From Dictyostelium discoideum (taxonomy: Eukaryota), in assembly GCA_000004695.1 (NCBI GenBank), contig CM000153.2:2976001-3040000 (forward strand): 64,000 nt of DNA. The letters are read 5' to 3'. Positions within the stretch are counted from its first letter, which is position 1, and each line of letters starts with the position of its first letter. Made by a program: the position numbers and the translations under genes. The notes under the pieces were generated by a model that saw only the letters and a program-made list of their open reading frames with translations, had not been told where the DNA came from and did no database searches. Of this stretch, positions 7,997 to 12,608 are shown piece after piece.

Positions 7997-8122
7997 TGGA
8001 TGAGATTCATATTATAATCATTTTTATAAATTAATTTTAATTATGGAAATTATTTAAGTAAAAAAAAAAAAAAAAAAATGTTTCGTTTCGTGAAATTTTA
8101 ACTAAAAAAAAAAAAATAAAAA

Positions 8123-8158
<36 letters not shown>

Positions 8159-8230
8159 TTTTTCATTTTTATTTTTTTTTTTGTGCGTAGGATAGAAAAA
8201 AACGTCAAAATTCCTTTTATTTATAAATAA

Positions 8231-10444
<2,214 letters not shown>

Positions 10445-11081
10445 ATAAATTAATAAATTTTAAAAATAAAATAAAATATTTTAATTTAATATATTAAATG
10501 TTTATAAAATTTAAACAAAAAAAAAAAAAACAGGAATTTAGTTTTTTTTTTTAAGCGTTTGGTTTGTTTTTTATTTTTTATTTTGCATCTTTTTTTTGAT
10601 TTTGATTTGTAATAATAAAGAGCTACAATTGGTTATAGTTTACAGCAGGTACAACCGATGGTCTAGGTGGATTTGATTTCACACAAAATGTTACTATTGC
10701 AACATTTGAAAAATATCAAATTCAAAGATACAAACCGACATCCACTGTCTCAGACCTCATACATTAGGGACCTATCAAAAAGAATTAGGTAAATGCAAAA
10801 GAAAATACATTCCAACTTTAACACCATATCAAAGGTTTTTCAAATAATTATTGTAGATTAATAAATTAAATATATATAGTGGGGTGATGCATCATACATT
10901 GTAATGATTTAATTATTTATGGGATTATTATAAATTTAAATTTTCATTTTCATTATTTGATTCATTCAATGATATCTTTTTCAATTCCTTACCCATATCA
11001 TTTTTAAAATTTATTAAAACTTAAAAGAAAAGTCATATTAAATTTGATACCTAAACAAAACATTTTATAAATTTTTTATAC

Positions 11082-12608
11082 TTATTTATATTTTAATGGA
11101 ATATCTGTTTGTGAATTGTGGAATTCAAAATGATCTTTGAAGTCAATATCTCCAGATGTTCCATCAATAGTACATACTACCCAAAATCTTGCACCAGTTT
11201 GTCGAGTGTTTGGGATACATCTTTCAAATAATGTTGAGGTTTCATGGGCAATTGTAAGCTTGGCACCTGATTGAGCTATTTCTCCTTCAGTTGAGAAATT
11301 ATGAACTGCATAAACATATTTACAACCATCTAAACGTATAATACTTATGGTTTCGGGACCAAAACCATTTTGAGTATCAGCTTCCAAGGACATTTTATCT
11401 ACACTCCTACCCCCGAAATAAACATGACTAATAGAACCATTAGGATGAATACACCACATATGAGAATCCAAATCCAGTGGTGATTCCCCCCAAGCTAAAA
11501 CGAAATCCATTTCTTTAGGCTTTTTAGGTCTACCGACATTTTGATGGCTTGAAGTGGTTCTTACAGAGTCATGTATAATCATTTTAAACTTTAAAGGTAA
11601 TAAATTACTCTTATTGGGTTTAATGATAACCTCAAATGTACCATCCAAGAGGTTTAGAGGAAGATCAGCATCACCTTGTGTAACACTGCCAGTAAACATA
11701 TTTCTACCACCATACATCAATTCAATAGTACCATCTATAGGTTCACTAAGAGGTGTTTTAATCATAAACTTTTTGGGAAGTATAATGCTTTCAGGTGGAT
11801 TGACATTAACCAATGATTTTAAGACTTCTCTTTGGCCAGATTCATCAAATATAGTTACTACATACTCTCCATAACTTGAAATATCATATGGATTTGGAAC
11901 ATTTGGTATTATTGCAATACAGTTCTTTGATTCATCATAAACTTGAGAAAAAACAACATCATCACTTGGTCCATCACAAGAAGATGGAAGAGAAACTGGC
12001 TTGCCTCTTCCTTTTGGTAAATTTGGTAGTAATGTGGCATCATATAAAGAAGGCACTTCACCAGTTAATTTTGGAATTGAGTTGGCACCAACACATGTTG
12101 GATCAATGATTGGGATTCTCTTTGATTGAGGTGATGGATTCAATATTTTATTTTGTGTTGCTGGTGATAAATTTGAAAAGTTATTTGTAGGTGGTTTGGT
12201 AACTTTCATTTGCTCAACTAGTTGTAACAATGAATTACTGAGAAGATCAATTTTACTTTTCATTTGTATGATATCTCTTTGGGTCTCAAGTGATTCTCTA
12301 CCTGTTGATGTTGGTGCATTTGAAGTATTGCCAGGTACTGGGTTTGGACTTGGGTTTGGGCTTGGGTTTGGAGTTGAGCCTGGATTATCTACAACACCAG
12401 AACCTTGTATTTCTTTAAGTTTTTTTTGAAATTTCCAAGGTACTGATAAAGTTTCATAATCTTTTTGTTCAAATAAAACAAAATCATCACCAGTGACTTG
12501 ATTTATTTTAAAACTATTAATGATGTTTGAATATTCATCACCAAGTGATGAATGTAAATATTTACACAGTTGATCACAAGATAGAGATGATATGGATCCT
12601 AACCTCAT
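11082..12608 (-). CDS. 508-aa protein with an N-terminal SAM-like domain, a Pro/Ser/Asn-rich linker, and a C-terminal TerD-like (tellurite-resistance/CABP1-type) domain
   Basis: It is a single long ORF. The N-term LGSISSLSCDQLCKYLHSSLGDEYSNIINSFKINQVTGDDFVLFEQKDY has a SAM-like helix-bundle pattern. (NPSP)n repeats are encoded by gggtttgggcttggg on the plus strand. The C-term VLAWGESPLDLDSHMWCIHPNGSISHVYFGGRSVDKMSLEADTQNGFGPETISIIRLDGCKYVYAVHNFS parallels TerD GLGWDA..DLDASAF..DGSVxHxGDNxTGEGDGDDExIxVDL..VP..VDKIVFVVTIH. The existence of the CDS is firm. The domain calls come from motif memory, not from a search. Confidence 0.7.
   Translation of the reverse strand: MRLGSISSLSCDQLCKYLHSSLGDEYSNIINSFKINQVTGDDFVLFEQKDYETLSVPWKFQKKLKEIQGSGVVDNPGSTPNPSPNPSPNPVPGNTSNAPTSTGRESLETQRDIIQMKSKIDLLSNSLLQLVEQMKVTKPPTNNFSNLSPATQNKILNPSPQSKRIPIIDPTCVGANSIPKLTGEVPSLYDATLLPNLPKGRGKPVSLPSSCDGPSDDVVFSQVYDESKNCIAIIPNVPNPYDISSYGEYVVTIFDESGQREVLKSLVNVNPPESIILPKKFMIKTPLSEPIDGTIELMYGGRNMFTGSVTQGDADLPLNLLDGTFEVIIKPNKSNLLPLKFKMIIHDSVRTTSSHQNVGRPKKPKEMDFVLAWGESPLDLDSHMWCIHPNGSISHVYFGGRSVDKMSLEADTQNGFGPETISIIRLDGCKYVYAVHNFSTEGEIAQSGAKLTIAHETSTLFERCIPNTRQTGARFWVVCTIDGTSGDIDFKDHFEFHNSQTDIPLKYK

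Follow-up and report, generated by a model that had tools for sequence, protein, structure and literature searches.

The gene and its locus

The window (the whole stretch of 64,000 nucleotides that was analysed) contains an uninterrupted reading frame of 508 codons plus a stop codon, in one exon:

11082..12608, minus strand: complete single-exon coding sequence of DDB_G0285215 (Q54NJ3), 508 codons and a TAA stop, an exact match to XP_638324.1

The length of this frame far exceeds chance expectation in DNA of 21.6% GC, and its translation equals XP_638324.1 / Q54NJ3 of Dictyostelium discoideum AX4 from the first to the last residue. The 508-aa single-exon protein that a first-pass annotation had proposed here is therefore real; that annotation gave no strand for it. 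The gene, whose product is annotated as a hypothetical protein, is convergent with dhx15 (8261-10444, plus strand), an arrangement shared by two other Dictyostelium assemblies. All genomes examined have the frame intact, among them that of Polysphondylium violaceum, in which the orthologue is also a single exon and is located among eukaryotic genes. The composition of the gene is fully host-like. This is a genuine gene with an intact ORF, nuclear and eukaryotic.

Neither a signal peptide nor a transmembrane segment was found in the protein, the highest 19-residue Kyte-Doolittle mean being 0.76 (the signal peptide of Escherichia coli YfaP, for comparison, reaches 1.61). The whole protein gave no match to Pfam, NCBIfam or PDB sequences even at E ≤ 10. 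We found no literature on DDB_G0285215 or DUF2135, and no experiment; YfaP is still listed as uncharacterised.

Domain architecture

At the N terminus a SAM-like domain is connected through a Pro/Ser linker to a coiled-coil-like helix; then come a beta-rich region specific to the lineage, a small beta-sandwich and, at the C terminus, a TerD-fold domain:

12399..12608, minus strand: SAM-like helical domain, aa 1-70 (orthologue profile against PDB; SAM_1/SAM_2 matches of the P. violaceum orthologue)
12303..12398, minus strand: low-complexity Pro/Ser/Asn linker, aa 71-102, TPNPSPNPSPNPVPGNTSNAPTST (translation)
12198..12302, minus strand: long coiled-coil-like helix, aa 103-137 (first AlphaFold model and amphipathic sequence)
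11760..12056, minus strand: dictyostelid-specific conserved beta-rich region, aa 185-283 (conservation; low-confidence model)
11568..11759, minus strand: small beta-sandwich, aa 284-347 (position equivalent to the CarboxypepD_reg domain, PF13620, of bacterial relatives)
11085..11522, minus strand: TerD-fold domain of the YfaP (DUF2135-containing) family, aa 363-508

When a profile of five orthologous N termini was compared with PDB, the SAM domain of SAMD12 ranked first (E 0.0047), followed by those of L3MBTL3 (0.046 and 0.065) and CNK2 (0.37 and 0.47), and SAM domains accounted for five of the six top matches. These matches are in register from the first helix over about 65 residues, in agreement with the helical prediction. 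In Pfam, the N terminus of the P. violaceum orthologue, which UniRef labels as a 'SAM domain-containing protein', matched two families only, SAM_1 (PF00536) with E 0.0015 and 19.3 bits against a gathering score of 23, and SAM_2 (PF07647) with E 0.015 and 15.9 bits against one of 20.5. Since these scores fall below the gathering thresholds, we consider the domain a divergent SAM member. Taken singly, the AX4 N terminus and those of three close orthologues had no Pfam match at E ≤ 10, and the N-terminal profile retrieved only its own cluster from a set of 5.8 billion proteins. AlphaFold places helices at residues 11-22, 24-31, 48-53 and 58-69 with an unreliable pLDDT of only 33-51 (the first full-length model, from an alignment of 8 sequences, had a pLDDT of 42). 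Judged by the profile comparisons, the N terminus is SAM-like, which largely bears out what had been read there from the letters.

The linker (TPNPSPNPSPNPVP in the first-pass annotation) is present and varies in length among orthologues. The stretch that follows it is amphipathic (LETQRDIIQMKSKIDLLSNSLLQLVEQMKV), was modelled as a helix at residues 107-134 with low confidence in the first AlphaFold model, and is probably a coiled coil. The beta-rich region is strongly conserved across all dictyostelid copies and, among the 294 proteins compared, occurs in Dictyostelium and P. violaceum only. Comparison of the small beta-sandwich with CarboxypepD_reg was negative at the sequence level. The architecture first proposed was right about both end domains and overlooked the coiled-coil-like helix and the beta-sandwich before the TerD-fold domain.

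The C-terminal domain belongs with YfaP

Residues ~363-508 aligned with residues 141-233 of E. coli YfaP in hhalign (probability 97.1%, E 6.7e-11), and BLASTP found bacterial proteins with 33-35% identity to the domain (E 2e-17 to 7e-20). NCBI and JGI label the top profile matches as 'YfaP family protein' or 'YfaP (DUF2135 family)', and the motifs of the family (WGxxPxDLDSH, LDxD...GxGPET, YxYxV and a W close to the C terminus) are all found. The C-terminal motif pointed out earlier, WGESPLDLDSH...HVYF...LEADTQNGFGPETISI...KYVYAVHNF, stands in the translation as written and is common to thousands of bacterial proteins. At least 112 of 118 bacterial sequences keep W373, P377, D379, L380, D381, H383, L408, D411, G417, P418, E419, T420, Y431, Y433, S447, P466 and W476, and about 20 core positions are unchanged from bacteria to amoebae. 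The profile evidence places the domain in the YfaP (DUF2135-containing; COG4676) family, which comprises 10,683 representative clusters, every named one of them bacterial. The Pfam model of DUF2135 (PF09906) had no match at E ≤ 10 in DDB_G0285215 or in any of 14 aligned domain copies; it covers 48 positions only (YfaP 199-244) and also misses proteins that NCBI names as YfaP family. A search of PDB sequences with the family profile found no chain.

E. coli YfaP and DDB_G0285215 have in common the motifs W-[GD]-x-x-x-x-D-L-D-x-H, D-x-D-x-x-x-G-x-G-P-E and Y-x-[VY], and in both the domain is preceded by a small beta-sandwich. The domain is extremely common in bacteria, and in bacterial YfaP-type proteins it is extracytoplasmic, with signal peptides and surface or periplasmic partners (PKD, Big, CWB2, TPR), and the genes lie in operons such as yfaA-T-S(alpha2-macroglobulin)-Q-P or within a T6SS cluster. 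DDB_G0285215, unlike them, is devoid of a signal peptide and has the SAM-like domain and the helix instead. A protein from a Salmonella T6SS cluster (P0014: beta-sandwich, YfaP-type domain and TPR) is 34% identical over the TerD-fold domain and likewise joins it to a protein-protein interaction module. It differs in coming from a bacterium, where its gene lies between tssM and tssA/F/G, and in that its partner is a TPR located C-terminal, not N-terminal, to the domain.

Fast evolution around an unchanged acidic core

Within the TerD-fold domain one part stands out in pairwise dN/dS:

11235..11522, minus strand: stretch of fast evolution within the TerD-fold domain, aa 363-458 (pairwise dN/dS)

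Among close Dictyostelium genomes, the pairwise dN/dS of this part is 2.0-2.9 between AX4 and the L009 and L011 copies. For comparison, aa 459-508 give 0.26-0.44, the neighbouring dhx15, at similar dS, gives 0.07-0.09, and the SAM-like domain has a value of 0.42. There is a localised excess of amino-acid change in aa 363-458 (three pairs give p = 0.003-0.01 for N:S heterogeneity between this part and the remainder of the gene), concentrated in the loops (378, 399-406, 412-414 and 437-442) that flank an unchanged acidic core. An excess of dN over dS is no more than suggestive (single pairs give p 0.009-0.07, three independent pairs together 0.11), and relaxed constraint explains it equally well. 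Tandem paralogues are present in close Dictyostelium genomes in varying number; none was found in the AX4 window, and in some genomes the gene models are truncated or rearranged (P0004, P0006, P0007). This fast evolution around an invariant acidic core and the tandem paralogues are new here.

The domain could be a degenerating or neutral passenger that lost its metal and ligand functions after acquisition and duplication, the high dN/dS reflecting relaxed constraint in a dispensable family of variable copy number. A whole-gene dN/dS of ~0.9 between close relatives, the lack of significance of dN>dS over pooled independent pairs, the truncated or rearranged gene models and the variable number of paralogues would all fit, as would the erosion of two acidic positions, 409 and 412 (from LDVDDT). 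Both are acidic and nearly invariant in bacteria and have drifted in dictyostelids: position 412 is D in 108 of 118 bacteria and is occupied by six different residues in six close Dictyostelium copies. The intact ORF in all examined genomes down to P. violaceum, the lower dN/dS at longer distances (0.25-0.5) and the core positions shared with bacteria speak against decay. So does the sharp localisation of the change, with aa 459-508 and the SAM-like domain staying at 0.26-0.44, a pattern that uniform relaxation would not give. We hold such a loss of function to be possible but not probable.

Origin and distribution

Among the proteins retrieved, the combination of a SAM-like and a YfaP-type domain is restricted to dictyostelids, and the gene is older than the split between Dictyostelium and P. 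violaceum. All named relatives outside the dictyostelids are bacterial, and two dictyostelid representatives appear among the best 150 of the 10,683 clusters, most members of which carry no taxonomic label. Because among eukaryotes the domain was seen here only in dictyostelids, it most probably arrived by horizontal transfer from bacteria and subsequently became joined to a eukaryotic module for oligomerisation. That it is instead an ancient eukaryotic domain, inherited vertically, appears unlikely. The age of the gene and its host-like composition would agree with vertical descent, as would two metagenomic proteins of protist-like composition (P0175 and P0178) that carry the YfaP-type domain, along with the many matches of unlabelled taxonomy. 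It is opposed by the exclusively bacterial nature of the named relatives, by the low number of dictyostelid representatives among those best clusters and by the beta-sandwich, which directly precedes the domain in bacterial relatives and has an equivalent position in the Dictyostelium protein. A fold search of viral proteins showed a similar sandwich in a few phage proteins only and gave no convincing giant-virus match (just a weak Medusavirus fibronectin-type match, E 3.5e-3), so that nothing in it suggests a viral route into amoebae.

Relation to TerD and a putative metal site

The C-terminal domain has the TerD beta-sandwich fold. With deep profiles, hhalign related it to TerD at P 0.0041, the real score being 24.2 against 12.3 ± 2.3 after shuffling (0 of 200 shuffles scored as high); with a shallow profile the comparison was not significant (E 0.15). 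The register pairs W with W and DLD with DLD and matches the acidic loop, which has E as its last residue, as well as the Y.Y.V strand, and the residue register to TerD drawn in the first-pass annotation is thus reproduced by profile-profile alignment to real TerD proteins. The TerD label that went with it holds for a remote relative of the same fold and fails for membership of the TerD/CABP1 sequence family. Pfam TerD (PF02342) had no match at E ≤ 10 in DDB_G0285215 or 13 relatives; taken literally, the outcome that the annotation itself had named as refuting its reading, the lack of a significant profile match to TerD or SAM, is what Pfam gave. Identity to members of the TerD family (Klebsiella TerD, 2KXT; Streptomyces SCO6318, 2QZ7) is 14-15%, with no HMMER-level similarity, different conserved His, Pro and Trp residues and no ter-operon context. 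YfaP-type and TerD domains are best described as separate families of one fold superfamily.

CABP1 (capA/capB) is a member of the canonical TerD sequence family and has a Pro-rich region N-terminal to its TerD-fold domain; we know of no SAM-like domain in it. By description, CABP1 and DDB_G0285215 are both Dictyostelium proteins with a bacterial-type TerD-fold domain, the latter lying outside the canonical family.

The TerD register also bears on metal binding, through two stretches of the domain:

11460..11474, minus strand: D379-L380-D381-S382-H383, aligned with TerD D40-L41-D42, Ca1 ligands in the source cited below (hhalign register)
11352..11387, minus strand: acidic loop L408-E419, LEADTQNGFGPE (hhalign register)

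A passage of PMC8779313 that cites Pan et al. (2011) gives residues 40, 41, 42, 78, 79 and 89 of Klebsiella TerD as Ca1 ligands and residues 29, 82, 84 and 88 as the Ca2 site. D379 and D381 are found in 117 and 116 of 118 bacterial sequences, respectively, and both in 6 of 6 dictyostelid ones. In the loop, hhalign places D411 on D78, T412 on N79, G415/G417 on G82/G84 and E419 on E89; L408, D411, G417, P418 and E419 are unchanged in all 124 sequences (118 bacterial and 6 dictyostelid), whose residue at position 415 is either G or S. With the ligands named in that passage, the register retains a putative Ca1-equivalent set of D379, L380, D381, D411 and E419, the N79 equivalent being T412, which is hypervariable in Dictyostelium. 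The loop (D-T-Q-N-G-F-G-P-E) is three residues shorter than the 13-residue TerD loop GDN(R/L)TG(E/A)GDGDDE and has no counterparts of D87 and D88, for which reason a TerD Ca2 site, as that passage describes it, cannot form. Given this and the drift at positions 409 and 412, metal binding by DDB_G0285215 may be weakened or lost.

It is very unlikely that the domain is a canonical TerD/CABP1 (PF02342) member binding Ca2+ at two sites or cAMP, and at the family level this is largely refuted. None of the 14 domain copies matched PF02342 at E ≤ 10, the family profile had no PDB match, and YfaP is matched far more strongly than TerD (E 6.7e-11 against P 0.004). The GDNxTGxGDGDDE loop is replaced by the shorter D-x-x-x-G-x-G-P-E without a D88 equivalent, and the conservation of H383, H395, P418 and W476 in the YfaP-type family has no TerD counterpart. 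A generic beta-sandwich (C2, copine or Ig-like) with a TerD-like motif by chance, for which one could cite that Foldseek against PDB gave weak, generic tandem-sandwich matches only, is barely credible. C2/copine or a generic sandwich, contamination and a pseudogene were all rejected, the exact AX4 match, the dhx15 synteny and the single-exon P. violaceum orthologue being among the evidence.

Proposed function and implications

On balance, DDB_G0285215 is probably best explained as a cytosolic multi-domain dictyostelid protein that combines a SAM-like domain with a YfaP-type TerD-fold domain, and for which we infer metal binding, oligomerisation, a ligand and horizontal transfer. Our best guess at its function is a scaffold for recognition that is oligomeric and depends on metal. 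Self-association would come from the SAM-like domain and the helix, and the TerD-fold domain would hold one divalent cation, probably Ca2+, at the Ca1-equivalent site, with D379, the backbone of L380, D381, D411 and E419 as candidate ligands. The loops around this site (378, 399-406, 412-414 and 437-442) would form a ligand-recognition surface. Because this loop surface varies between copies and evolves quickly, we propose that the protein would serve in recognition or as an adaptor, in oligomeric form and dependent on metal.

A bolder version, which we find doubtful, would have a bacterial, extracytoplasmic YfaP-type metal-binding module captured by an ancestor of Dictyostelium and P. violaceum, fused to the SAM and coiled-coil parts and now turned into an intracellular recognition receptor that diversifies rapidly and duplicates in tandem, with an invariant cation core and positively selected loops; candidate ligands would be, for example, molecules of bacterial prey or pathogens, or partners in self/non-self conflict. 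Such a receptor could be likened to C-type lectins, with their fixed cation-binding core and reshaped specificity loops.

A family of more than 10,000 clusters, modelled in Pfam only as the 48-residue DUF2135 fragment, gains a fold assignment (TerD) and a metal-site hypothesis. The same orphan family covers YfaP, encoded in the alpha2-macroglobulin operon of E. coli, as well as the protein from a T6SS cluster of Salmonella. If the fast evolution is mere relaxation, the finding shrinks to the domain annotation of a hypothetical protein. In dictyostelids, an exported bacterial module has apparently been rebuilt as a cytosolic protein with a SAM-like oligomerisation unit. Rapid change around a fixed acidic core and variable copy number form a pattern typical of recognition or conflict genes, which makes DDB_G0285215 a candidate for studies of amoeba-bacteria interaction or kin discrimination.

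The gene and its neighborhood

In the window, whose GC content is 21.6%, the gene DDB_G0285215 lies between stretches of typical AT-rich intergenic DNA. The features that concern us are:

8261-10444, plus strand, dhx15 (Q54NJ4), convergent neighbor of DDB_G0285215
11082-12608, minus strand, DDB_G0285215 CDS, an uninterrupted 508-codon ORF
11554-11874, plus strand, 106-aa ORF with a GTG start, antisense to DDB_G0285215
53253-53324, minus strand, tRNA-Asp (GTC), the sole tRNA gene in the window

The translation agrees at every residue with XP_638324.1 / Q54NJ3 ('hypothetical protein DDB_G0285215', Dictyostelium discoideum AX4), a label that it carries because sequence searches of Pfam, NCBIfam and the PDB match nothing, even at E<=10. 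The features singled out in the first-pass annotation, namely a helical N-terminus, an NPSP-type linker and the C-terminal WG..P.DLD.H ... GFGPE ... YVYAVHNF, can all be seen in it. The antisense ORF is most likely a shadow ORF without significance. In the neighboring dhx15, a poly-Thr/Asn stretch is inserted close to the N-terminus, and a Ser/Gly-rich run ([10 protein letters not shown]) occurs close to the C-terminus.

The C-terminal domain is of the YfaP type

A search of 5.8 billion proteins retrieved two classes of homologues: Dictyostelium orthologues and paralogues (61-97% identity, some as tandem pairs), and bacterial proteins at 33-35% identity that aligned only over residues ~366-490 (pairwise E 2e-17 to 7e-20). 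In these bacterial relatives the matching stretch, for which Pfam has no separate model, directly follows a CarboxypepD_reg domain. With a profile of 14 C-terminal domain sequences, an indexed search recovered 1,569 proteins, many of them named 'YfaP family' by NCBI or JGI, and an exhaustive one 10,683 representative clusters (6,288 of them at E<=1e-10), among them giant proteins in which the domain occurs up to five times. Since this profile matches residues 141-233 of Escherichia coli YfaP (hhalign probability 97%, E 6.7e-11), we assign the C-terminal domain of DDB_G0285215 to the YfaP-type family. In E. coli K-12, yfaP (L001:5368-6144) is the final gene in yfaA-yfaT-yfaS-yfaQ-yfaP. The Pfam model DUF2135 (PF09906) has only 48 positions (YfaP 199-244) of a conserved domain that spans about YfaP 141-258, and it therefore misses the amoeba protein and most of the proteins that NCBI names YfaP family. 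Most of a family of more than 10,000 representative clusters escapes it. YfaP has a signal peptide, whereas DDB_G0285215 has neither a signal peptide nor a membrane segment.

Other arrangements of the domain were also seen. Bacterial proteins P0139-P0144, P0170 and P0172 carry three to five tandem YfaP-type domains, with chain lengths reaching 3,375 residues, and two metagenomic fragments of protist-like composition (P0175, P0178) contain repeated beta-sandwich plus YfaP-type units. A Salmonella enterica relative (L002-L004, gene 8001-9185) combines a beta-sandwich, a YfaP-type domain and TPR repeats within a type VI secretion cluster, with tssM/icmF and an AcrVA2-like ORF on one side and a PASTA-like ORF, tssA, tssF and tssG on the other.

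Relationship to TerD

By fold, the best hits of the domain were SCO6318 (2qz7_B; score 15.2, 139, 2.6 A) and Klebsiella TerD (2kxt_A; 13.3, 141, 3.0 A), the third hit scoring 6.7. For the profile comparison, Ter proteins were taken from annotated plasmids. Shallow profiles reproduced the register proposed in the first-pass annotation without reaching significance (E 0.15), while hhalign of 124 YfaP-type against 11 TerD-family sequences gave P 0.0041 over 104-127 columns. None of the 200 column-shuffled controls (mean 12.3, SD 2.3, maximum 23.4) reached the real score of 24.2, nor did the reversed control (14.8), and on this ground the YfaP-type domain is a remote relative of TerD with the same fold. 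Membership of the TerD/CABP1 sequence family itself was rejected: PF02342 matched none of 14 copies of the domain, and a PDB search with the domain profile recovered no TerD chain. The earlier SAM-TerD reading is partly supported: it was correct about the fold and the bacterial character, and also about a SAM-like partner in an unusual architecture, but not about the TerD/CABP1 assignment, the domain being of the YfaP/DUF2135 type. Among viral structures (BFVD, Foldseek), no convincing giant-virus match was found; phage proteins A0A2I7QY18, H6SUA9 and I7JBZ3, some from Campylobacter phages, have a similar fold (E 6e-6 to 4e-4).

A candidate metal site

PMC8779313, citing Pan et al. (2011), gives residues 40, 41, 42, 78, 79 and 89 as ligands of the first calcium site of Klebsiella TerD (Ca1) and 29, 82, 84 and 88 as those of the second (Ca2). 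They were mapped onto DDB_G0285215 by the hhalign register, and conservation was scored in 118 bacterial and six dictyostelid sequences.

TerD calcium ligands and their equivalents in DDB_G0285215
D40 / L41 / D42, Ca1: D379 / L380 / D381, at least 112/118 bacteria, 6/6 dictyostelids
D78, Ca1: D411, 118/118 bacteria, 6/6 dictyostelids
N79, Ca1: T412, D in 108/118 bacteria, variable in dictyostelids
E89, Ca1: E419, 118/118 bacteria, 6/6 dictyostelids
W29, Ca2: W373, 116/118 bacteria, 6/6 dictyostelids
G82 / G84, Ca2: G415 / G417, position 415 G or S, G417 invariant
D88, Ca2: no equivalent, the DDB_G0285215 loop being three residues shorter

Position 409 is D in 117 of the 118 bacteria and variable in dictyostelids. 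Judging by ligand conservation, the missing D88 equivalent and the variation at 409 and 412, a single, partly remodelled Ca1-like site is plausible in DDB_G0285215, and a Ca2 site would not be expected.

N-terminus and middle region

The N-termini of the AX4 protein and its close orthologues have no match in Pfam. The exhaustive search yielded a more divergent orthologue of the same architecture, P0177 (KAF2076591.1) from Polysphondylium violaceum, named 'SAM domain-containing protein' in UniRef, whose N-terminus matches only SAM_1 (E 0.0015, 19.3 bits, gathering score 23) and SAM_2 (E 0.015) in Pfam. An N-terminal profile was compared with the PDB, with four sequences first and five later; the latter had the SAM domain of SAMD12 on top (E 0.0047), followed by two matches each to the L3MBTL3 and CNK2 SAM domains, so that SAM domains were five of the six best matches, every one aligned from the start of the domain. 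By these profile matches, the N-terminus appears to be a divergent SAM-like domain. A long helix is predicted by AlphaFold, at low confidence, at aa 107-134, C-terminal to the Pro/Ser linker, and aa 185-283 are conserved, in dictyostelids only among the proteins retrieved.

Orthologues and origin

In two other Dictyostelium assemblies the orthologue adjoins dhx15, convergent as in AX4, and two Dictyostelium genomes have a tandem paralogue upstream of it (the two copies are at L009:6538-7987 and 10001-11536, and at L013:6358-8425 and 10001-11004). The AX4 window (1-64000) contains no second copy. One gene model, P0004, has an internal partial duplication of the final ~50 residues. The P. violaceum gene has one exon and ordinary eukaryotic neighbors. 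Among the 294 proteins compared, the domain occurs together with the SAM-like region and 185-283 only in those from dictyostelids, and the named relatives outside dictyostelids are bacterial without exception. Most economically, this architecture would have arisen by horizontal acquisition of the domain and its subsequent fusion.

Localized amino-acid change

Nei-Gojobori dN/dS between AX4 and the syntenic orthologues was ~0.9 for the whole gene and differed by region, while dS was alike in every region compared (0.05-0.15); dhx15 provided the local neutral baseline, with a dS of 0.05-0.15 to the other assemblies.

dN/dS by region
aa 363-458 (first two thirds of the TerD-fold domain, window 11235-11522): 2.0-2.9, AX4 versus L009 and L011 copies
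aa 459-508: 0.26-0.44, same pairs
aa 185-362 (middle region): 0.4-0.8, close genomes
SAM-like domain: 0.42, close genomes
dhx15: 0.07-0.09, close genomes

Nonsynonymous to synonymous changes in 363-458 against the remaining gene were 40:5 versus 29:16 (p 0.006), 18:0 versus 28:14 (p 0.003) and 47:6 versus 40:18 (p 0.01) in three pairs; in the fourth, which compares the tandem copies of L013 with each other, the ratios did not differ (p 0.57). A direct test gave p 0.009-0.07 per pair and p 0.11 pooled over three independent pairs, so that dN>dS in this region is only suggestive. The most variable sites, L378 (five residues in six copies), 399-406, T412 (6/6), Q413, 437-442 and 451-457, flank an invariant acidic core in the sequence, with 378, 399-406 and 412-413 adjoining D379/D381/D411/E419. 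Over longer distances dN/dS is 0.25-0.5. The pattern is compatible with diversifying selection on a binding surface and equally with a local relaxation of constraint.

Proposed function

The literature holds no experimental knowledge on DDB_G0285215 or on YfaP function. Beyond the architecture and fold described here, the best-supported model is that of an oligomeric cytosolic scaffold, in which molecules would self-associate through the SAM-like domain and the helix. A divalent cation would sit in the Ca1-like site of the TerD-fold domain, which may recognize a ligand through its variable loops. The chief alternative to this model is a module in functional decay. The assignment of a TerD fold to a very large orphan family adds somewhat to the interest of the protein, as does its localized rapid evolution.
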